This document shows, piece by piece, positions 3,570-43,588 of a stretch of DNA of 64,000 nucleotides. The stretch lies in the sequence record OR880646.1, one strand, 5' to 3'. Origin of the DNA: Escherichia phage ECP2301. The number at the start of each line of letters is the position of its first letter. The stretch's first letter is position 1. A program made the translations under genes and the position numbers. Below the pieces are notes generated by a model that saw only the letters and a program-made list of their open reading frames with translations, was not told where the DNA came from and did not search any database.

Positions 3570-4207
3570 TGAATGAACCCCAATTACTAATTGAAACTTG
3601 GGGTCAACCTGGCGAAATTATTGATGGCGTGCCAATGCTTGAATCTCATGATGGAAAAGACCTCGGTTTAAAACCTGGTTTATACATCGAAGGAATATTC
3701 ATGCAAGCGGAAGTCGTCAATAGAAATAAACGTCTTTATCCAAAACGCATATTAGAAAAAGCGGTAAAAGACTATATCAATGAGCAAGTTTTAACTAAAC
3801 AAGCTCTCGGAGAATTAAATCATCCTCCACGCGCTAATGTTGACCCAATGCAAGCCGCTATCATTATAGAAGATATGTGGTGGAAAGGAAATGACGTATA
3901 CGGACGAGCTCGTGTTATTGAAGGTGACCATGGTCCTGGAGATAAATTAGCAGCTAATATTCGTGCCGGATGGATTCCAGGAGTTTCTTCTCGTGGATTA
4001 GGTTCATTGACTGACACAAATAAAGGTTATCGTATCGTAAACGAAGGATTCAAATTAACTGTAGGTGTTGATGCAGTATGGGGTCCAAGTGCTCCAGATG
4101 CATGGGTAACTCCTAAGGAAATTACCGAATCACAGACGGCGGAAGCCGATACAAGTGCCGATGACGCCTATATGGCTCTCGCAGAGGCCATGAAAAAAGC
4201 GTTATAA
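3569..4207 (+). CDS. 21: prohead core scaffold protein and protease
   Basis: 212 aa; position and length as T4 gp21. Confidence 0.9.
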   Translation: MNEPQLLIETWGQPGEIIDGVPMLESHDGKDLGLKPGLYIEGIFMQAEVVNRNKRLYPKRILEKAVKDYINEQVLTKQALGELNHPPRANVDPMQAAIIIEDMWWKGNDVYGRARVIEGDHGPGDKLAANIRAGWIPGVSSRGLGSLTDTNKGYRIVNEGFKLTVGVDAVWGPSAPDAWVTPKEITESQTAEADTSADDAYMALAEAMKKAL

Positions 4208-4210
4208 ATA
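4203..4210 (+). promoter_or_regulatory. late promoter TATAAATA for gene 22
   Basis: exact TATAAATA overlapping gene 21 stop. Confidence 0.7.
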
Positions 4211-4237
4211 TTATTATCTAAACAACAGGACTACAAA

Positions 4238-5047
4238 ATGCTTAAAGAACAACTGATTGCTGAAGCGCAAAAAATTGATGCTTCCGTTGCTCTTGATAGT
4301 ATTTTCGAATCAGTTAATATTTCTCCGGAAGCAAAAGAAACTTTCGGCACTGTATTCGAAGCTACCGTCAAGCAGCACGCCGTTAAATTAGCTGAATCTC
4401 ATATCGCTAAAATTGCTGAAAAAGCAGAAGAAGAAGTAGAAAAAAATAAAGAAGAAGCCGAAGAAAAAGCTGAGAAGAAAATCGCTGAGCAAGCTTCTAA
4501 ATTCATCGACCATCTTGCAAAAGAATGGCTCGCTGAAAATAAATTAGCAGTTGATAAAGGCATCAAAGCCGAACTGTTTGAATCCATGCTTGGTGGATTA
4601 AAAGAGCTCTTTGTTGAACACAACGTTGTTGTTCCAGAAGAATCAGTTGATGTTGTAGCTGAAATGGAAGAAGAGCTGCAAGAACATAAAGAAGAATCAG
4701 CTCGTCTGTTCGAAGAACTCAATAAGCGTGACGCATATATCAATTATGTGCAGCGTGAAGTGGCATTGAGCGAAAGTACTAAAGATCTGACTGAGTCTCA
4801 AAAAGAAAAAGTCTCTGCTCTGGTCGAAGGTATGGATTATTCAGATGCATTCTCAAGTAAATTGAGTGCCATCGTAGAAATGGTGAAGAAGTCTAATAAA
4901 GATGAAAGCACTATTACTGAGGGTATAAATACTCCTGATACTGAAGCAGCCGGACTGAATTTCGTCACTGAAGCTGTAGAAGATAAAGCTGCACCTGGTG
5001 CAGAAGATATTGTAAGTGTATATGCGAAAGTCGCATCTCGTTTCTAA
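4238..5047 (+). CDS. 22: prohead core scaffold protein
   Basis: 269 aa, E/K-rich helical composition; late promoter at 4203-4210. Confidence 0.9.
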   Translation: MLKEQLIAEAQKIDASVALDSIFESVNISPEAKETFGTVFEATVKQHAVKLAESHIAKIAEKAEEEVEKNKEEAEEKAEKKIAEQASKFIDHLAKEWLAENKLAVDKGIKAELFESMLGGLKELFVEHNVVVPEESVDVVAEMEEELQEHKEESARLFEELNKRDAYINYVQREVALSESTKDLTESQKEKVSALVEGMDYSDAFSSKLSAIVEMVKKSNKDESTITEGINTPDTEAAGLNFVTEAVEDKAAPGAEDIVSVYAKVASRF

Positions 5048-22135: not shown

Positions 22136-22189
22136 TCCTCATGTTATGTCAGTAAGATTACTATAACACAACACGAGGGACTTGTAAAC
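22136..22189 (-). repeat. 54 bp exact repeat, copy A (early promoter + leader + SD)
   Basis: identical to 38114-38167. Confidence 0.9.
22160..22189 (-). promoter_or_regulatory. early promoter (GTTTAC -35, TGtTATAGT extended -10)
   Basis: inside 54 bp repeat copy A, upstream of 96 aa ORF. Confidence 0.6.
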
Positions 22190-24246
22190 TACATCTTGAA
22201 CTTTTTAGACATTCCGTTGATGTTAACCAAAGAAGCCAAGATTTGAGAAACTTCGTTTTCCTCTTCTTTTGATTCTTCTACAAGGAATTGATTAAACCCA
22301 GCCATTGGACGAACTTCGCCAGTTTCCATTAGATGATCGCCATCATATACCGATTCTTCTAATTGTTCAGAAGGAGGAACGATTGTGCCTTCGATTAGAT
22401 ACTTGTTATAAGCAGTTTCTTTCATCATGTACGTGCTCACTTTATTAATCTTCAGCAAAATTCCACGCGGTAGAATAACTTCAGCTTCTGATGGAAATCC
22501 CGATAAATGACCTGGAACGATAACTTTGATTCGCTCAGCCCCTTTAATTACCATACCTACGCTAGTTTCAGCATCTTCATTCGCATAAGCAGAATGACTG
22601 CCCATATGCATTAAATCTTCAGCATCAACAGAACCTTCTCCTTCACCAGAAAATACTGCGCCGGAATCATCTAGAGCCATATAGTTTTTACCATGCTCAC
22701 CGAAGATATTTGGTTTAAGCGATGTTGATACGAAGTTCTTGAAATAGAACATTTTATTTTCAATATTATGGCGTAAAGTTTTAAAAGTAACTTCTTGTCC
22801 ACGATAAAGCGTAGTTCCTGGAGGAAGAACTGAACCTTTGGCAAAGGCAGAATCCAGCGTCTCGATGTGTTTAATAGCTCGTTCCATATATTCTTCACGG
22901 GTAGAATCTGGTTTACCCAAGAGGAACGAGTTCATTTCAACATATGAATCTGCACAATAATCTTCAATTACATCAGACTCAGCCTGAGTCAGTCCTTTTG
23001 GAGTTACTTCGGTGCTTGAGTATTCATATGCCTGAGCAGCAGATTCATTAATCAATTTATAAATGCCATTCATGACAAATTGAATAATAGCTACCTTTTC
23101 GTCTGGCGTAGCTTTAGAACCTTTAACTAAATCATTGATAATTTTCTTAATAACATCAAAGCTATTAGAAATATTAATGTCAGCGAGATCGCTCAAAATT
23201 TTATCGGTTTTATAATCAAAAAATTCTTTATTCTTTAAATATTCTTGAGAACCTTGATGTGTTATATCGCTCTGCAGTCTGATAGACGGATCACGTAAAC
23301 GCGCATGGGCCAATGCAATATGATTTCGGAAGCTTTCTAGTTCATAATCGTTAGATTTAAAACGAGAAGCACTTCTCATACCACCGATAGCTCCTTTGCC
23401 GAAGTTTGAACCAATCTGAATAACACCAGAGTTCATTGGTCCTTCTGCTTTATATACCGGAACTTTAGATTCAAACTCTTGATATTTCTTGGCAGCGAAG
23501 CTATCACCCTGTAGCGAAGCATCGACAGTAGAATATTGAGCTTGTGCTGCTAATCGACGACTAATTTTAGTTTTCTGAATAACAGCTTGATCCGTGCGCT
23601 TATCATTTTCTAAAGCAATAGAAGCAGCAACAGCAACAGCTTTAGGAACAGCATTACCTGTTTTAACATCTACATAAACATCACCAACCTTTGATTCAAC
23701 TTTTGTGAATAACTCAGTTGAAATAGGAGGTACACCTGGAATGTCTTCTAAATTGGCATTTTTACGGTAAACCATAATATATGCATACTTTTTATCATAA
23801 TCCCAGATTTCCTTTAAAAGAACATATCGACCTGCTCCTTTAGTACGTACTAAACGGTCAGCAATAACTTGCATTTGACGAGCTGCGCCATTTGTTTTAC
23901 TTTTTAGTACGCGGAATAAGCATGCATCAATTTTATACTGTTTCATTGTTTGAAGAGCAGTATCAAAAACGGCATTAATGACACCAATTGGATTTCCACC
24001 CAAGTTTTTAAGTTTAACTAATGATAGTTTCTCATTAACACCTATCATTACGATATGCATCATTTTATCGCCTGGCTTAACGTTTTTATTTGTATCACCG
24101 CCAGAGGTGTATGTACAAAATCTAAATCCAGGAAGCACGCTTTCTTCACCGGCTTGAATAGCAAAAATTTGAGGTATTTTATGCTTAGGATTTAAGTTAA
24201 CAACCGGCGCCGAAGCGCCGTCAAATAATTCTGTAATAAGTTCCAT
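22189..24246 (-). CDS. Alt-family ADP-ribosyltransferase paralogue (copy 1)
   Basis: 685 aa; N-terminus MELITELFDGAS...; C-terminal R (LYRGQ), STS (FVSTSL), ExE (EAEVILPRG) motifs. Confidence 0.8.
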   Translation of the reverse strand: MELITELFDGASAPVVNLNPKHKIPQIFAIQAGEESVLPGFRFCTYTSGGDTNKNVKPGDKMMHIVMIGVNEKLSLVKLKNLGGNPIGVINAVFDTALQTMKQYKIDACLFRVLKSKTNGAARQMQVIADRLVRTKGAGRYVLLKEIWDYDKKYAYIMVYRKNANLEDIPGVPPISTELFTKVESKVGDVYVDVKTGNAVPKAVAVAASIALENDKRTDQAVIQKTKISRRLAAQAQYSTVDASLQGDSFAAKKYQEFESKVPVYKAEGPMNSGVIQIGSNFGKGAIGGMRSASRFKSNDYELESFRNHIALAHARLRDPSIRLQSDITHQGSQEYLKNKEFFDYKTDKILSDLADINISNSFDVIKKIINDLVKGSKATPDEKVAIIQFVMNGIYKLINESAAQAYEYSSTEVTPKGLTQAESDVIEDYCADSYVEMNSFLLGKPDSTREEYMERAIKHIETLDSAFAKGSVLPPGTTLYRGQEVTFKTLRHNIENKMFYFKNFVSTSLKPNIFGEHGKNYMALDDSGAVFSGEGEGSVDAEDLMHMGSHSAYANEDAETSVGMVIKGAERIKVIVPGHLSGFPSEAEVILPRGILLKINKVSTYMMKETAYNKYLIEGTIVPPSEQLEESVYDGDHLMETGEVRPMAGFNQFLVEESKEEENEVSQILASLVNINGMSKKFKM

Positions 24247-24249
24247 GAT

Positions 24250-26346
24250 TTATCCTTGAACGAACTTGTAAGGCATGTTTGTAATATCTATGCAAGACGC
24301 AATAATTCTAAGAGATGATTCTACTTTTTGTTTAACATTTGATGAAACAAATGATGCAAAATCAACTCTGTCTTCTATTTCAATATCACCTGTCATTGCA
24401 ACTACTTCACCAGTTTCCATTAGACGGTCACCGTCATAAATTACTGATTCGGTGAGTTCTTCCGTAGTCATAACTTCAGCTTGAATGAGTTTTGTATTAT
24501 TAGATGTTGTTCCATCATTATTAGAAGCATCAGTTATTTTATTAACTTTGACCATCAATCCGCGTGGTAGAATAACTTCAGCTTCTGTTGCTATTCCGAG
24601 ACTTCCTGGATATACAACATTAACTTTATGAGCTCCATCAATTGCCCATCCTATTTGAACTTTAACGTATTCAGGATTTTCTTTATACGCTCTTATTTCG
24701 TTTGGATTAATAGTTATTCCTTCTTCATTTTTATCAACTGTCAATTCATTACGAGCTTCTGGTTCTAAAAGACCAATACCAGCATGTGTAATTCCAAAAC
24801 GTCCAAAAATGATAGGAGTTAAAGAAGTAGATACAAAATTTCTGAAATAGAACACTTTATTTTTAACTAGTGCTTCGTATATAGGAGCAGTCATACTTTG
24901 AGCACGATAAACTGTAATGCCTTCTGGTATACGGTCACCATTTTCAAAAGCTGAATCTAAGTTATTTATAGCAGATTCAATTTCTTTTTCACTCATTACA
25001 TCATATCGTTCTGGATTGTAGCGTCCTAAAAGAAGATTATTGATGTCAGTATATCCTGAACCACAATACTCTCTAATGCCGCGCTTTTGTGATGGAGTAT
25101 ATTTAGAACCATCGCGAGCAATAGTAATATCAATCATTGGACCTGCACCAATTCCAGAAAAACTATAAATCATTCGTTTGAGGAATTTAGTTTTTGCTGC
25201 GTTCCAGGAATTTTTAGTTATTTCTTCCCAGACTTCATCTGGCTGTCCTTTACGTGTTTTATTATGTTTATCAAGCCAATTATCTTTATATTCTTCAAAG
25301 AGTTGATTAACGGCTGCTGCGTATTTCTCTAAACATTTTATTGAAGTAGTTGGTTCATTTTTAATCGCATTAAGAATTACATCTTTTATCTTTTCAGAAA
25401 CTTCATTAACCTCACTTTTTGAAAAGAATTTATAATCATAGTGAAGTTCATCTGCAGTTCCTTCGGCAATGATTTTTGCTGCCTTAGTTTTAGAAGCTAT
25501 TGAATTAATTCCAAGTTTCATTTCTTCTGCTTCGGGAATTAAAGGAGCGGTAGCAGGTTTATTGAAATTAGCTGCGGTAGATTCATACTTCTGGAATAAT
25601 TCACTTTCAAATCTAGAAGATTCTAATGATTGACTTTGTGCAATTGCTCTACGGGAAATTTTAACTTTAACGATTACAGCTTGATCAGAACGTTTATCGT
25701 TTTCTTGCGCAATAGATGCAGCAATTGCCTCATTTTTAGTTACTTGAGCTCCGGTATCTTTATTGATATAAACATCACCGACCTTCGATTCAACTTTAGT
25801 AAAGAGCTCGGTACTAATTTCAGGAACTCCTGGAATGTCTTCTAATGATACATTTTTGCGATGTATAAGAATATATGCGTACTTTTTATCGTAATCCCAG
25901 AGTTCCTTAAGAAGGACGTATCTGCCACCTGAACGACTACGGATAAGTCTATCAGCAATAAGTTGAATTTGTCGAGCTTGACCAGCAGTTTTAGACTTAA
26001 GAATACGGAGCATACAGGCATCAATTTTATACTGACGCATTGTTTGCATCGCAACAGTAAAAACTGAATTGATGTAATTAATTGGGCTTGGACCGAGACC
26101 TTTTAATTTAGCGATTGAACCTTTAGCAGTTAATGTAAAAGGAACAATATGCATCATTTTATCGCCCATCTTTAAATCGCGATTAGTATCACCTCCAGAT
26201 GTATAGGTACATAAACGAAAGCCTGGTTGTTCAATTGCGTCATCAACATGAACTGAAAAAATTTGCGGTATTTTCTTCTTTGGATTTAAGTTTGTAATCG
26301 GAAGAGTAGTATCTTCGTCAAATAATTCTGTAATGAGTTCCATCAT
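24250..26346 (-). CDS. alt: Alt ADP-ribosyltransferase (copy 2, closer to my recollection of T4 Alt)
   Basis: 698 aa; N-terminus MMELITELFDEDTTLPITNL...; R (VYRAQ), STS (FVSTSL), ExE (EAEVILPRG); late promoter upstream. Confidence 0.85.
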   Translation of the reverse strand: MMELITELFDEDTTLPITNLNPKKKIPQIFSVHVDDAIEQPGFRLCTYTSGGDTNRDLKMGDKMMHIVPFTLTAKGSIAKLKGLGPSPINYINSVFTVAMQTMRQYKIDACMLRILKSKTAGQARQIQLIADRLIRSRSGGRYVLLKELWDYDKKYAYILIHRKNVSLEDIPGVPEISTELFTKVESKVGDVYINKDTGAQVTKNEAIAASIAQENDKRSDQAVIVKVKISRRAIAQSQSLESSRFESELFQKYESTAANFNKPATAPLIPEAEEMKLGINSIASKTKAAKIIAEGTADELHYDYKFFSKSEVNEVSEKIKDVILNAIKNEPTTSIKCLEKYAAAVNQLFEEYKDNWLDKHNKTRKGQPDEVWEEITKNSWNAAKTKFLKRMIYSFSGIGAGPMIDITIARDGSKYTPSQKRGIREYCGSGYTDINNLLLGRYNPERYDVMSEKEIESAINNLDSAFENGDRIPEGITVYRAQSMTAPIYEALVKNKVFYFRNFVSTSLTPIIFGRFGITHAGIGLLEPEARNELTVDKNEEGITINPNEIRAYKENPEYVKVQIGWAIDGAHKVNVVYPGSLGIATEAEVILPRGLMVKVNKITDASNNDGTTSNNTKLIQAEVMTTEELTESVIYDGDRLMETGEVVAMTGDIEIEDRVDFASFVSSNVKQKVESSLRIIASCIDITNMPYKFVQG

Positions 26347-26397: not shown

Positions 26398-26584
26398 AAT
26401 AATCTATTGGTAAGAGAGTACGGTATATTTCAAACTTTGGACCTTTTTCATAGGCATCAAATGTTTCTGTGAATTTATTATAAGCATATGCATCTATAAA
26501 TTCAATCATAATTTGTGATACAGAAGTAGAAACATCTCCACCTTCTTTTTGAGCCACGACAATTGTTTCTAAGTAAGCTTTCAT
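26396..26584 (-). CDS. hypothetical protein
   Basis: 62 aa ORF, ATGA overlap with ligase stop. Confidence 0.5.
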   Translation of the reverse strand: MKAYLETIVVAQKEGGDVSTSVSQIMIEFIDAYAYNKFTETFDAYEKGPKFEIYRTLLPIDY

Positions 26585-28044
26585 AGACCAGTTACCTCAT
26601 GAAAATCACCAAATACATCCTCGAATGTATTAGCTTTAGTTTTATCTTCACGTAAACGAATCGCAATCGGAAGAAATAATTTAACGTAATCAGTGCGGCC
26701 ATCAGATTTTAACCAACCATTGCATTCACATTCTAGAATTTTTCCAATATAATAATTTTGGTTTTCCATAATGCGAGTACGGTCAAGTTCATGCGATTTT
26801 ACACCGGCTTTATCTTTTAAGCCTGAACCAGCATTTACTTTAATTTTTCCACACTCTGATTCAAGAATAAATCCACCTGCTTTAGTAGGGTCTTTACGGT
26901 GAGGATAAATTCCTACAATTTTTAAATCAACATCAATTACTTCTTTAAATTTATAAAGATTTTTTGAACGAGCATTTTCCCACAATCCATCGGTATTTTT
27001 GAGAATAATACCTTCAAGACCTTGGTCAATATATTTTTTATAAATTACCTTAGCTTCATCTAGGTTATTTACTACCTGGTTTTCAATTAAAATTACTTTA
27101 TCATATCCTGATGTCATTTGTTCTAGTTTAGAAAAACGTACATCATACTTCAAACGAAACGCCGGAAGACCGTATATTTCTACCAACGGGACATAATCCC
27201 AGACCTGAAACTTCATGCATTGAGCTTCTTTTTCAGAAATGGTTCCTTTTAAGGATTTATTGGCGATTCCATTAGAAGTAGTACGAGATTCCGCTACTTC
27301 GGCGAATTCTTTAGCTTTACTAATTTCAGGATAAGCATCAAAAAGAAAATCTAGGCCTTCTGGTTCCTTTTTAACTTGCTCATGGTATACCAATTCGCCA
27401 TCGATTAACACACCTTCTGGATGAATCTGGCGGGCTTCAGCAGTCATTTTGATTAACTCTTCCTTAAGAAGATCTAATCCTAGATATTCATTACCAGCTC
27501 GTGATAAAAGACGAACATCATCTAATTCATCACCTCGGACTTCAGCAAAACACCGAGCTCCATCTGCTTTTAACTGTGCAAAGGCTGGAAACTTGATATT
27601 CTTATTAATGCCCTTTTCATCATAAGAACTTGCCAGCATTTGAGGTTGTTCAGGAATTAAACCTGGCCAAACTTTATTTGCAATAGATACTGAAGCACCG
27701 CATTCAAGATCTCGCATCATAACTCGACGCAAAACTTCAACATCATCCTTTTTACCATCGGTGATATATCCAGTTAATTCCTCAATTGCCGCATTTCCAG
27801 TCAATTTCCGAGTAGCTAACGTGAATTCAATGAAGTCAAGCATATCAGTAATGGTCAGCATTCCAAAACTCTGGGTAGCAATACCAGGCTTAGGCCATTT
27901 CTTGATATAATACTGTAACCCACGAGAATAAGTCAGACGATATACTCGTTTAAGCAATTCATTATCTTTATTCTTTTCAAGAATTGCTTGCTTCTGCTTA
28001 GTTGATCCAATAGATGCTATTTCATTCAGAATTTTAAGAATCAT
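26581..28044 (-). CDS. 30: ATP-dependent DNA ligase
   Basis: 487 aa; adenylation motif KADGAR (AQLKADGARCFAEV). Confidence 0.95.
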   Translation of the reverse strand: MILKILNEIASIGSTKQKQAILEKNKDNELLKRVYRLTYSRGLQYYIKKWPKPGIATQSFGMLTITDMLDFIEFTLATRKLTGNAAIEELTGYITDGKKDDVEVLRRVMMRDLECGASVSIANKVWPGLIPEQPQMLASSYDEKGINKNIKFPAFAQLKADGARCFAEVRGDELDDVRLLSRAGNEYLGLDLLKEELIKMTAEARQIHPEGVLIDGELVYHEQVKKEPEGLDFLFDAYPEISKAKEFAEVAESRTTSNGIANKSLKGTISEKEAQCMKFQVWDYVPLVEIYGLPAFRLKYDVRFSKLEQMTSGYDKVILIENQVVNNLDEAKVIYKKYIDQGLEGIILKNTDGLWENARSKNLYKFKEVIDVDLKIVGIYPHRKDPTKAGGFILESECGKIKVNAGSGLKDKAGVKSHELDRTRIMENQNYYIGKILECECNGWLKSDGRTDYVKLFLPIAIRLREDKTKANTFEDVFGDFHEVTGL

Positions 28045-28310
28045 TGTTCATCCTTCAGAGTTTGATTTACAGCTCTATTATAAATCAATTCATCATTAAG
28101 CTCAGTTAAAGACCTATGATATGTAGTTCTAACTTTATTTCCTTGCATCCAGTGCTTGATATAAATGAAACCTTGCTCTACACATTTTTTAAAAATTCGT
28201 TCGTCTTTTTGAGCTCGGAATTCTGGATTGCATCTAAAGAATTGATTTACGTGACCGTAATCACGTGTAGTATTACCTTCATTTTCATAAATAGTGTGAA
28301 CGACAAACAT
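28041..28310 (-). CDS. 30.1: hypothetical protein
   Basis: 89 aa ORF, ATGA overlap with ligase start. Confidence 0.6.
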   Translation of the reverse strand: MFVVHTIYENEGNTTRDYGHVNQFFRCNPEFRAQKDERIFKKCVEQGFIYIKHWMQGNKVRTTYHRSLTELNDELIYNRAVNQTLKDEQ

Positions 28311-29149
28311 TAGAATGCTCCTTGGAAAATATTATCACCACAAGTAGGTCTATTATACAAATACTCTATGCCACCAGGTTTAATATAGTTCCATGTCTGA
28401 AACGGATGTGTCTGATATGGATGATATAGATGATTATAAGGATTAAATCCAGGCGTTCTCCAGGTAGTGTTCCAACGAAAAGAATCATTTTTAATCATCT
28501 TTTCAATTATATCTTTTATAGCTTTTTCACTATCAAAACTTTCTTTATTTTCCTTTGGTGAAAAAAGCTTATTTTCTACATCATTCCATGTATAAACTCG
28601 CTGCGCAGTTTTTGGAATATTGTCACGCTCTCCTCGAGCCATCCAATAAACAGGAACATTTAATATTTCACTCGCATGATCGCAATGGTGCGCTAGATCG
28701 TCAATATAACAAATCACGTTATATTTCTCTTTTGCCTTTTTGAATAACTCTTCTTTTGAAGAATCATGACCACACATCATTACTTCTGAGAAGGCACCAG
28801 GAAAAAGAGCATTCAAATTAAATTGACGATTCAACAGAGCGTCAATAGAATCACCCAATGCTGTAACAGCTACAAAATTATAATCTTCTTTTAGTTTGTT
28901 AATTACGCACAGGGCATCTTTATATGGAGACAGGTAACGAATAAAATCTGATCGATTGTATTTTTCAATTAGCTTGACACCAAGTTCTTCATCACAATTA
29001 AAGAGTTTACCTGGAGAAATAAATTTCTCATCTTGGATCATTTTTAAAATATGTTCTAACGGAAGATTATATTTCTGAGCAAAATAAGGAAGACCTGATT
29101 GCCAGCTTAAACATACTCCATCAATATCAGTCAAAATAGTAGGCTTCAT
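28310..29149 (-). CDS. 30.2: hypothetical protein with HAD-like N-terminal motif
   Basis: 279 aa; N-terminal ILTDIDGV (DxDG motif I) and later YIDD. Confidence 0.65.
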   Translation of the reverse strand: MKPTILTDIDGVCLSWQSGLPYFAQKYNLPLEHILKMIQDEKFISPGKLFNCDEELGVKLIEKYNRSDFIRYLSPYKDALCVINKLKEDYNFVAVTALGDSIDALLNRQFNLNALFPGAFSEVMMCGHDSSKEELFKKAKEKYNVICYIDDLAHHCDHASEILNVPVYWMARGERDNIPKTAQRVYTWNDVENKLFSPKENKESFDSEKAIKDIIEKMIKNDSFRWNTTWRTPGFNPYNHLYHPYQTHPFQTWNYIKPGGIEYLYNRPTCGDNIFQGAF

Positions 29150-29610
29150 AGAGAGTCTCTTAGTAGGTTTAACACATCAATAAATTCAGCTTCGGTTAGT
29201 ATTGTATCATCTTTTGTTAGACCACTAGCCATGCTGTGCTTCAAAACTTTTCCTTTCGAGGCTTGTAATGCATCACGAAAGCCCCTGTTTTGGATCGCTG
29301 CTTCAAAATATGCATTTGTGTATAATTCTTTCCACGCCGGGGAGTATCTTGAAAACGGAACTCCAAGCCAGAAGAGGGTCCCACGGTCCTGAGCTCTAGC
29401 ATAAGCTCGTCCAGCTTGTTGGGCGGCAAGCCCGGATAACCCAAATATACGACGTTGCTGTTCAATATTTTTCACCTTACACCCTTGGAGGAATCCTTCG
29501 AGACCTCCAAATTGGATACCATCCATAACAAAAGGCCATTGGGCGAAATTACTTAATGCGCATGATGGCCATTTAAAATTGCTTCTTATCTCTAGCTCAG
29601 ACATTTTCAA
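29146..29610 (-). CDS. 30.3: NADAR (YbiA/DUF1768)-like protein
   Basis: 154 aa; LSNFAQWPFVMDGIQF resembles the FSNF..WP..VDG core of YbiA-family proteins. Confidence 0.6.
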   Translation of the reverse strand: MKMSELEIRSNFKWPSCALSNFAQWPFVMDGIQFGGLEGFLQGCKVKNIEQQRRIFGLSGLAAQQAGRAYARAQDRGTLFWLGVPFSRYSPAWKELYTNAYFEAAIQNRGFRDALQASKGKVLKHSMASGLTKDDTILTEAEFIDVLNLLRDSL

Positions 29611-30300: not shown

Positions 30301-30316
30301 AGGGGCCGAAGCCCCT
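30301..30316. terminator. GC hairpin in 30.x cluster
   Basis: AGGGGC-CGAA-GCCCCT followed by T-rich run on + strand. Confidence 0.4.
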
Positions 30317-30759: not shown

Positions 30760-31092
30760 TTATTTTACTACTTTCCAGTGCTGCATGTCAAGTTTACCAA
30801 CTTTTTTCATCTTCTCAATTAAGCGTTCTGCGCGTTGGCGAGCTGTAACATAATGCCATTCACCTAATTCATTTTGTTCAATTTTTCCAACGATTACTGT
30901 ATTCAATTCATAAATCCAACCAGTAAAGAAATTATGAACTTGAATTGTAAAGGTGAAATCTGTTCCCATACCTTCTGTTGTTTCTACTTCAATAATATCA
31001 CCTTCAACTGCCATTAAGAACCACATAGTTTCATCATATTTACCATTGAAGCATTTAGTTTTAACTGCAGCGTTCAGATTAATCGTTTTCAT
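30760..31092 (-). CDS. hypothetical protein
   Basis: 110 aa ORF with its own early promoter and AAGGAGAA SD. Confidence 0.6.
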   Translation of the reverse strand: MKTINLNAAVKTKCFNGKYDETMWFLMAVEGDIIEVETTEGMGTDFTFTIQVHNFFTGWIYELNTVIVGKIEQNELGEWHYVTARQRAERLIEKMKKVGKLDMQHWKVVK

Positions 31093-41006: not shown

Positions 41007-43271
41007 TCATAATTTACAGGATGAACAATCTTCAGCTTTTGGAGTTTCTATTTCATAATCATCAGTACCAGAACCGTCACGGGTATTATGATAATAGAAA
41101 TTTTTTCCGCCAAAATACCAAAAATACAAAAGGTCATCAATCATTATTGACATTGGAACCTTTCCTTTTGGAAAAATCTGCGGGTCATAATATGTATTCG
41201 CTGAAGCTGATTGACATACCCATTTAAGCATAATAGCTACTTGCGTAAGATAAGGTTTATTACCTTTCTTAGCTAATTTCCACGTATAATCATAGAGGTC
41301 TATGTTATGCTCAATATTGGGCACGACTTGATTAAAGGAACCCTCTTTTGATTCTTTAACAGAGACTGGTCCACGTGGAGGCTCGATACCGTTTGTACTG
41401 TTAGAAACTTGGGAAGATGACTCACATGGCATAAGTGCTGATAATGTGCTATTACGGATGCCAAAGAGCTTAAGGTCTTCCCGCAGCGACGACCAGTCAC
41501 AAACGTATTTTGGAGCTGCGATTTGGTCAATCTTTTTATTGTACCAGTCGATAGGTAATTCGCCTCGAGACCAACGAGTGTCTGAATAATATTCGCAAGG
41601 TCCTTTTTCTTTGGCGAGCTTAATGGATGCTTTAATGAGTCCATACTGTAATCTCTCAAATAGTTCATGTGTTAAATCGTTAGCATCTTCATAAGAAGCA
41701 AAATTACTTGCCAGCCAAGCTGCATAGTTAGTAACACCTACACCAAGGTTTCGACGCTTTTTAGCTTTTTCTGCTTCAGGAACTGGATATCCTTGGTAGT
41801 CCAAAAGATTATCAAGAGCACGAACTTGGACTTCTGCCAATTCATTAATTTTATCTTGGTCTTGCCAGTCAAAGTTATCTAACACAAATGCAGATAATGT
41901 ACACAATCCAATTTCAGCATCAGGACTATTCACATCATTTGTTGGAATAGCAATTTCACAGCACAAGTTGCTCTGACGAATAGGTGCCTTTTCACGAATA
42001 AACGGAGTATAGTTATTCGTATTATCTATGAACTGTACATAAATCCTTGCTGTTCCTGAGCGTTCAGTCATGAGTAATTCAAACAGTTCACGGGCTTTAA
42101 TACGCTTTTTACGAATATTAGGGTCTTTTTCTGCGGCTTCGTATAATTCACGGAAACGGTCTTGGTCTTTAAAATAAGAATAATAAAGCTCGCCACCCAT
42201 TTCATGCGGACTGAACAAAGTAATGTAATCGTTCTTTCCGAATCGTTCCATCATTAGGTCATTCAGTTGAACGCCATAATCCATATGACGGATACGGTTT
42301 TCTTCTACGCCTTTGTTATTTTTCAAAACGAGAAGATTTTCAACTTCCAAATGCCAAATAGGATAATAAGCAGTAGCAGCGCCGCCACGAATTCCGCCCT
42401 GTGAGCATGATTTAACTGCAGTCTGAAAATGTTTCCAAAAAGGAATAACACCAGTATGGCGTACTTCACCTGTGCCAATCTTAGAACCTTCGGCACGAAT
42501 CATACCAACGTTAATACCAATTCCAGCGCGTTTGGAGATATATTCAACAATTGAAGCAGAAGCCTTATTGATAGACTTTAATGAATCACCTGCTTCAATA
42601 ACAACGCATGAACTAAACTGCCGAGTTGGAGTACGGCAACCAGCCATAATAGGAGTTGGTAATGAAATCTGTCGAGTAGATACTGCTTCATAAAAACGAA
42701 TAACGTGTTTTAATCTATCAACAGGTTCATCTTGATGCAATGCCATTCCAATAGTCATAAATGCAAACTGTGGAGTTTCATAAATTTGACCAGTGGTTTT
42801 ATCTTTAACTAGATATTTTTCTTTTAATTGCATCGCCCCGGAATAAGTAAATTCCATATCCCGCTCGTGCTTAATTTTTGATTCTAAAAATGTAATTTCT
42901 TCGGCAGAATATTTTGACAACAATTCAGGGTCGTATTTACCTTCATTTACACAGTAAGAAATATGGTCAATAAATGAACGTGGTTCATACTGCCCGTAAA
43001 CATGCTTACGAAGAGCGAACATTAAACAGCGTGCAGCTACATATTGATAATCAGGCTCTTCAACTGAAATAGAATTCGCAGCAGCCTTAATTACAATGGT
43101 TTGAATGTCATCAGTTGTCATTCCATCACGGAGATATGATTTAATATTTTCATATAATTCATAAGGATCTACAGATGTTCCTTCAGCTGCCCAAGATAAA
43201 ACTTTAATAATTTTTTGCGGGTCAAAGCTCTGAGAAACACCACTACTTTTGATAACATTAATTAATTGCAT
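41007..43271 (-). CDS. nrdA: ribonucleotide reductase large subunit
   Basis: 754 aa ORF. Confidence 0.95.
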   Translation of the reverse strand: MQLINVIKSSGVSQSFDPQKIIKVLSWAAEGTSVDPYELYENIKSYLRDGMTTDDIQTIVIKAAANSISVEEPDYQYVAARCLMFALRKHVYGQYEPRSFIDHISYCVNEGKYDPELLSKYSAEEITFLESKIKHERDMEFTYSGAMQLKEKYLVKDKTTGQIYETPQFAFMTIGMALHQDEPVDRLKHVIRFYEAVSTRQISLPTPIMAGCRTPTRQFSSCVVIEAGDSLKSINKASASIVEYISKRAGIGINVGMIRAEGSKIGTGEVRHTGVIPFWKHFQTAVKSCSQGGIRGGAATAYYPIWHLEVENLLVLKNNKGVEENRIRHMDYGVQLNDLMMERFGKNDYITLFSPHEMGGELYYSYFKDQDRFRELYEAAEKDPNIRKKRIKARELFELLMTERSGTARIYVQFIDNTNNYTPFIREKAPIRQSNLCCEIAIPTNDVNSPDAEIGLCTLSAFVLDNFDWQDQDKINELAEVQVRALDNLLDYQGYPVPEAEKAKKRRNLGVGVTNYAAWLASNFASYEDANDLTHELFERLQYGLIKASIKLAKEKGPCEYYSDTRWSRGELPIDWYNKKIDQIAAPKYVCDWSSLREDLKLFGIRNSTLSALMPCESSSQVSNSTNGIEPPRGPVSVKESKEGSFNQVVPNIEHNIDLYDYTWKLAKKGNKPYLTQVAIMLKWVCQSASANTYYDPQIFPKGKVPMSIMIDDLLYFWYFGGKNFYYHNTRDGSGTDDYEIETPKAEDCSSCKL

Positions 43272-43588
43272 AAGTCCTCAACTTGAAAATCGTCTTTAAA
43301 CAATCGGTTAACTATATGAGCTATTATATCACCATGACACGGCTTTGGTTTACATGTGCATCCTAGCCTCATTCCACGTAAAGGCTCTAAATGTGCTTTA
43401 GTTATTTCTCCGGATTTAATTCGACGTATAAAATCTTTTTTGAATAATTCAATGGCAGCCTCCCGGCTGCCAGCATCTTTACCGACGTAATTTCCCCAAA
43501 ATGTACCACGGTGAATATTAACATCAAAGTCGGATTTATATTTATTCACTACCTGGCATAGACGGCCCGCGCGGTAATAATTCTTCAT
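43262..43588 (-). CDS. DUF4326-like small protein
   Basis: 108 aa; TFWGNYVG and [15 protein letters not shown] motifs. Confidence 0.6.

Follow-up and report, generated by a model that had tools for sequence, protein, structure and literature searches.

The DNA of Escherichia phage ECP2301 contains an intact orthologue of phage T4 gene 30.3, now named adfN. Its product very probably functions as a minimal, single-domain NADAR enzyme that reverses the DarT1-dependent ADP-ribosylation of guanine N2 on phage DNA in the manner of an orphan antitoxin. The analysed stretch of OR880646.1 comprises 64,000 nucleotides and is referred to as the window. Our analysis provides the orthology, the intact length, the fold and three conserved residues, while the enzymatic activity, the anti-DarTG1 phenotype, the guanine specificity and the lack of DarT1 binding are carried over from the T4 protein. 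By analogy to this protein (97% identity), the ECP2301 allele is expected to act as a guanine-ADPr glycohydrolase and to protect against DarTG1. The feature is already known, because a nearly identical orthologue has been characterised by experiment, and the proposal of a NADAR with anti-DarT function is not new. Fold, chemistry and biological role of gene 30.3 were published between 2012 and 2026, so that the finding carries little weight as a discovery. For annotation purposes, the gene can safely be labelled adfN or NADAR guanine-ADP-ribosylglycohydrolase; most GenBank records for gene 30.3 still carry the label "hypothetical protein".

Gene 30.3 in the ECP2301 genome

The window represents a Tequatrovirus (T4-like) genome. 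The 3-kb surroundings of the gene are 97-98% identical to those in many Tequatrovirus phages, with Shigella phage Sf24 as best match (97.9%), and the gene order 30.4-30.3-30.2-30.1-30 equals that of T4. Between the ECP2301 protein and T4 gp30.3 (NP_049816; AdfN-T4, PF08010) 147 of 152 residues are identical without any gap. The sole differences are the five substitutions K11R, I47V, A67S, R107K and M125I (window to T4), all of them conservative and positioned away from E36, K43 and H123, which both proteins share together with an identical C-terminus and an intact last helix. The overlaps with genes 30.4 and 30.2 are also the same in both phages. On sequence grounds, the ECP2301 gene is the orthologue of T4 gene 30.3.

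The initial annotation had correctly located the open reading frame at 29146-29610 but had not given its strand. It lies on the minus strand and spans 465 bases, with 154 codons counted from a TTG and a TGA stop at 29146-29148. An ATG at 29604 follows two codons downstream of the TTG, and the T4 record begins the orthologue at this position, resulting in a protein of 152 aa. Residues are numbered here from the ATG; with no other start do E36 and K43 carry their published numbers. The peptide quoted in the initial annotation, LSNFAQWPFVMDGIQFGG, is present and corresponds to residues 17-34. The gene and its borders are as follows:

29146..29604, minus strand: adfN (T4 gene 30.3 orthologue), predicted 152-aa single-domain NADAR ADP-ribosylglycohydrolase; ATG 29604-29602, TGA 29148-29146
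29605..29610, minus strand: two extra codons, TTG AAA, translated if the upstream TTG is used (154 aa); unused in the T4 annotation
29597..29604, minus strand: overlap of 8 bases (ATGTCTGA) between the end of gene 30.4 and the adfN ATG, from sequence reading
29146..29149, minus strand: overlap ATGA between the adfN stop and the gene 30.2 start, from direct sequence reading; identical 4-base overlap in T4 coordinates

The ATGA junction is compatible with translational coupling of adfN and 30.2. Both genes belong to a closely packed string on a single strand, 30.7-30.6-30.5-30.4-30.3-30.2-30.1-30, which ends with the DNA ligase gene 30 at 26581-28044; the location within a ligase cluster, as proposed initially, is therefore confirmed, and the order is T4-like. 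A match to a sigma-70-like promoter lies just upstream of this string:

30762..30791, minus strand: TTGACA-18-TAAAAT, 11/12 positions, just upstream of 30.7, from a consensus scan

This site weakly suggests a candidate early promoter for the string from 30.7 to 30 including adfN. The same consensus scan yielded a G+C-rich palindromic hairpin (AGGGGCCGAAGCCCCT) at 30301-30316 in the intergenic gap between 30.7 and 30.6. For promoters and terminators, the number of sites in the region was no higher than in shuffled sequence, so that early transcription of adfN, which we infer by analogy, is based on the knowledge about T4 and not on the scan.

The G+C content of adfN is 43%, compared to 36% for the whole window and 31-36% for the neighbouring genes. 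By codon position it amounts to 52% (position 1), 43% (position 2) and 35% (position 3). Recent transfer was considered as source of the raised G+C content and rejected, since the value at position 3 resembles that of the genome; the excess rather reflects the amino-acid composition. Inside adfN, frame +1 at 29241-29465 on the minus strand is the counterpart of the internal ORF 30.3' annotated in T4. In the window, T4 and RB27 no stop codon interrupts this frame over 76 codons. In RB69, despite the 94% identity of its gp30.3, the frame is broken into open stretches of at most 40 codons, and distant homologues do not conserve it. A second gene is thus unsupported, and 30.3' is probably not a gene.

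A tblastn survey retrieved gene 30.3 from 1,510 phage records; almost all of these belong to T4-like phages with enterobacteria, Aeromonas, Acinetobacter or Vibrio as hosts. A NADAR of the gp30.3 family is also present in Caulobacter phage CcrColossus (3001-3462), a jumbo phage outside the Straboviridae, where a putative RNA ligase gene (3748-4956) follows about 300 bases downstream of it and there is no cluster with a DNA ligase gene and 30.2. This occurrence fits an independent spread of the NADAR gene and may point to a context connected with RNA.

Family assignment and fold

The single ECP2301 sequence matches PF08010 (Phage_30_3) over all profile positions (1-138 of 138) with an E value of 3.7e-69 and 231 bits against a cutoff of 36, and it belongs to PHROG 652. 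The match to the NADAR/DUF1768 profile, whose absence the initial annotation had named as a refutation, is not found at this level: PF08719 gave no match at E values up to 10, NCBIfam gave no match, and a comparison to PDB sequences returned no NADAR but a chance match alone (3rjz, E 0.85). At the level of the family, the assignment holds. For this purpose 100 homologues were gathered, of which 58 full-length sequences were aligned with the query (59 sequences) to give a family profile. Among PDB sequences, E. coli YbiA was the sole match of this profile (E 0.0026), and hhalign aligned the profile to YbiA over residues 15-122 with a probability of 94.9% and an E value of 4.8e-8. Within this alignment FSNFAAWPIKVDG of YbiA is paired with LSNFAQWPFVMDG of ECP2301, so that the similarity to the NADAR motif noticed initially is real. 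Individually, 25 of the 58 homologues match PF08719 (best E 1.5e-7).

The AlphaFold2 model calculated from the alignment is confident (pLDDT 93.3, pTM 0.88) and displays the alpha+beta fold of NADAR proteins, a helical core flanked by small beta-hairpins; no macrodomain is among the structure matches. The ECP2301 protein is accordingly a member of the NADAR superfamily, a relationship that, as judged from profile comparison and the predicted model, becomes visible only at the profile and structure level.

Active site

Three codons of adfN specify the residues expected to form the active site:

29497..29499, minus strand: Glu36, catalytic or ribose-contacting; equivalent to E48 of YbiA, E43 of PnNADAR and E88 of E. 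coli C7 NADAR
29476..29478, minus strand: Lys43, phosphate-coordinating; equivalent to K55 of YbiA, K50 of PnNADAR and K95 of E. coli C7 NADAR
29236..29238, minus strand: His123, last beta-strand; phage-subfamily replacement for Glu (YbiA family) or Asp (DarG1/BC4488 family)

All three are among the invariant residues in the 59 aligned sequences. The profile search as well as hhalign pair E36 with E48 and K43 with K55 of YbiA, and for PnNADAR (E43/K50) and E. coli C7 NADAR (E88/K95) structures and mutagenesis have demonstrated that the corresponding residues bind the distal ribose and the phosphates (PMC11543638). H123 is located in the last strand of the model (residues 120-123) and is paired with YbiA E125 if the hhalign alignment is prolonged by one position without a gap. 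At this position YbiA proteins have Glu, DarT1-associated NADARs Asp, and phage gp30.3 proteins His (PMC11543638, PMC11125620, PMC12945103). The conservation of catalytic residues, which the initial annotation had left to an alignment, hence holds for E36 and K43 but not for the last-strand glutamate. Since His is a family-wide feature of phage NADARs, the "missing" glutamate is a signature of the subfamily and not a loss or defect.

Function of the T4 protein

DarTG1 resistance of T-even phages was mapped to gene 30.3, which was renamed adfN, its product AdfN standing for "anti-DarT factor NADAR" (Johannesman et al. 2025, PMC11825919). In that study AdfN was necessary and sufficient for the resistance: T4 and T2 with deleted adfN lost plaquing on DarTG1 cells, while ectopic AdfN-T4 provided in trans fully rescued RB69. 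Purified AdfN-T4 stripped ADP-ribose from DarT1-modified DNA, and the variants E36A and K43A as well as an RB69-like C-terminal truncation were impaired or reduced in activity, with partial in vivo activity retained by E36A and K43A (PMC11825919). AdfN-T4 did not bind DarT1 in a two-hybrid assay, did not counter DarTG2 and rescued T5 and Bas25 only weakly; its full function was limited to infection by T-even phages, regardless of cytosine modification, implying a phage helper (PMC11825919). Independently of that study, T4 gp30.3 was shown in vitro to cleave ADP-ribose off guanine, though not thymine, in DNA (Cihlova et al. 2024, PMC11125620), and in vitro hydrolysis of guanine-ADPr by this NADAR is also described in PMC12945103. 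E. coli expressing DarT1 without phage was not rescued by T4 gp30.3 (PMC11125620). Guanine-ADPr on RNA is likewise hydrolysed by the T4 NADAR in vitro, with a lower efficiency than by E. coli C7 NADAR (PMC11833690). Removal of cytidine-ADPr is credited in the summary table of PMC12945103 to the NADAR and YbiA-type families only and not to phage NADAR. These studies bear out, for a protein 97% identical to that of ECP2301, the initial suggestion of a NADAR that clears DNA guanines of ADP-ribose and counteracts DarT (PMC11825919, PMC11125620).

An intact allele in ECP2301

In RB69, insertion of a T at nucleotide 411 truncates gp30.3 after residue 137 and renders the phage sensitive to DarTG1 (PMC11825919). 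This natural loss-of-function allele is 94% identical to the ECP2301 protein over residues 1-137 but lacks the last helix, whereas ECP2301 has no such insertion, as judged from DNA and protein alignments with T4, RB27 and RB69. The helix concerned is encoded here:

29149..29193, minus strand: C-terminal helix, codons 138-152 (helix 138-151 in the model); lost in the RB69 frameshift allele, intact in ECP2301

By sequence, the ECP2301 gene is intact, with the full length of 152 aa and the C-terminus as in T4. ECP2301 is therefore predicted to be resistant to DarTG1, unlike RB69. Many tblastn matches of high identity cover residues 1-144 only. A second class of truncated alleles was considered for these records and rejected, since the RB27 gene, although its record is among them, specifies all 152 residues and an identical C-terminal sequence; that the matches end at residue 144 is an effect of the search, not a property of the genes.

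Proposed mode of action

AdfN would be produced early in infection. In a DarTG1 host, infection frees the DarT1 toxin, which adds ADP-ribose to N2 amino groups of guanine in the phage DNA and in this way blocks replication. AdfN would then cut the N-glycosidic bond, so that ADP-ribose is released, normal guanine restored and replication continued. It would thus act as an "orphan antitoxin" on the modified DNA without binding the toxin. The putative active site consists of Glu36, Lys43 and, where other NADARs have Glu or Asp, His123, and full activity is expected to require the C-terminal helix. Since uninfected E. coli is not rescued and the rescue of T5 and Bas25 is weak, the simple picture of a free-standing hydrolase is incomplete, and a T-even factor may be required for full AdfN activity. 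The in vitro hydrolysis of guanine-ADPr on RNA (PMC11833690) furthermore implies that DNA may not be the sole substrate.

A different view holds that the main substrates in the cell are soluble ADPr derivatives that serve as immune signals or arise from RNA repair, or else guanine-ADP-ribosylated RNA, with the anti-DarT1 function as only one facet. A role on soluble ADPr or RNA adducts was proposed on genomic grounds (PMC9503650), the T4 NADAR does take guanine-ADPr off RNA in vitro (PMC11833690), and the neighbourhood of the CcrColossus homologue to an RNA ligase gene points in the same direction. Nevertheless, adfN is necessary and sufficient against the DNA-modifying DarTG1, and the enzyme de-modifies DarT1-treated DNA (PMC11825919), while a soluble or RNA substrate lacks genetic support and no soluble substrate has been demonstrated; we consider such a main role unlikely, an additional one conceivable. 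There is next to no chance that the ECP2301 protein is a housekeeping N-glycosidase of the YbiA type, which destroys reactive intermediates of the riboflavin pathway. YbiA is indeed among the top matches in sequence and structure, and some homologues are labelled "YbiA (DUF1768 family)" by JGI, but the last-strand Glu that defines YbiA is His in every family member, in the published tree the closest relatives of the gp30.3 group are the DarT1-associated NADARs, and the phenotype that has been demonstrated is anti-DarTG1 (PMC11825919). The presence of two Alt-type ADP-ribosyltransferases 3-7 kb away in the same early region, together with a homologous layout in an Acinetobacter phage with an ART beside the ligase cluster, could also indicate that AdfN reverses or limits the modifications set by the phage's own Alt paralogues and has no role in anti-defence. 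The closeness of these genes is ordinary Straboviridae synteny, and no experiment speaks in favour of such a role, which we regard as very improbable.

Comparison to other NADAR and DarG proteins

DarG1 proteins (E. coli C7 NADAR; G. lovleyi NADAR, PDB 8bat) are encoded beside the DarT1 gene, whereas adfN of ECP2301 is an orphan: no ART adjoins it, and its neighbours 30.4 (PHROG 2042) and 30.2 (PHROG 420) are both without assigned function and without Pfam match. The DarG1 fold has an N-terminal extension (219 aa in 8bat), while the ECP2301 protein consists of the core only (152 aa). DarG1 also has a catalytic Asp in the last strand instead of His, and T4 AdfN differs from it by not protecting uninfected cells from DarT1 (PMC11125620, PMC11825919). 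E. coli YbiA (PDB 2b3w; PF08719) shares about 21% identity with the ECP2301 protein. It is a housekeeping N-glycosidase for which no protection from DarT1 in vivo was reported (PMC11125620), and the last-strand glutamate characteristic for its family is replaced by the invariant His123. The initial term "YbiA-like" is therefore misleading with respect to function, since the gp30.3 group is closest to DarG1 NADARs and not to YbiA (PMC11825919).

The macrodomain antitoxin DarG2 and DarG2-like mimics of phages follow the same strategy as AdfN, the enzymatic removal of ADP-ribose from DNA bases, but have an unrelated fold and act specifically on thymine adducts; against DarTG2, AdfN is without effect (PMC11825919). 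The target of AdfN is DarT1 (guanine) and not DarT2 or the macrodomain DarG (PMC11825919).

Neighbouring genes

Gene 30.2 directly follows adfN:

28310-29149, minus strand: gene 30.2, 279 aa; start overlaps the adfN stop (ATGA); PHROG 420, function unassigned

Direct reading of its product revealed motifs similar to HAD phosphatases, DIDGV (residues 8-12) and a later YIDD, and a C-terminal extension of 80-90 residues that many homologues do not have. The Pfam search with the 30.2 product gave no match; sub-threshold matches to NT5C/HAD were obtained only for an Acinetobacter-phage homologue, and PHROG matches to polynucleotide-kinase phosphatase were weak. Some GenBank records name 30.2 HAD-like hydrolase or 5' nucleotidase. 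The gene adjoins 30.3 or lies within two genes of it in Acinetobacter, Slopekvirus and Angelvirus phages, and is next to or near 30.3 also in Tequatrovirus and Mosigvirus. In a Krischvirus and in CcrColossus, 30.3 has no 30.2 beside it, so that the adjacency is not universal. Gene 30.2 was found in 1,452 records, and its counts by host genus run parallel to those of 30.3, which is expected from common descent and does not establish a functional link. The 30.2 product could conceivably be the T-even helper that recruits AdfN to replicating DNA or processes the freed ADP-ribose, but we regard this as a lead and not as a finding, with only a slim chance of being correct. A functional partnership is unsupported, given the missing Pfam match, the adjacency that is not universal and a co-distribution explained by shared ancestry alone.

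The two Alt transferases and the DUF4326 protein to which the initial annotation had drawn attention are present as described, both transferases being full-length:

22189-24246, minus strand: Alt-type ADP-ribosyltransferase, 685 aa; PF03496; 42% identical to T4 Alt
24250-26346, minus strand: Alt-type ADP-ribosyltransferase, 698 aa; PF03496; 70% identical to T4 Alt
43262-43588, minus strand: DUF4326 protein, 108 aa; PF14216, E 1.3e-21; PHROG 464

The 698-aa Alt is a mosaic, with the first ~240 residues near-identical to T4 Alt and a diverged central region. The 685-aa Alt occupies the place where T4 has just the decayed duplicate fragments alt.-1 and alt.-2. The ECP2301 pair stands in tandem. 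DUF4326 was proposed by Aravind's group to be a rhodanese-phosphatase-like domain or ADPr-phosphate-processing enzyme that acts on breakdown products of ADP-ribose (PMC9503650). In ECP2301 its ORF lies just upstream of an ORF of 754 aa (41007-43271) and overlaps the start of the latter by 10 bases.
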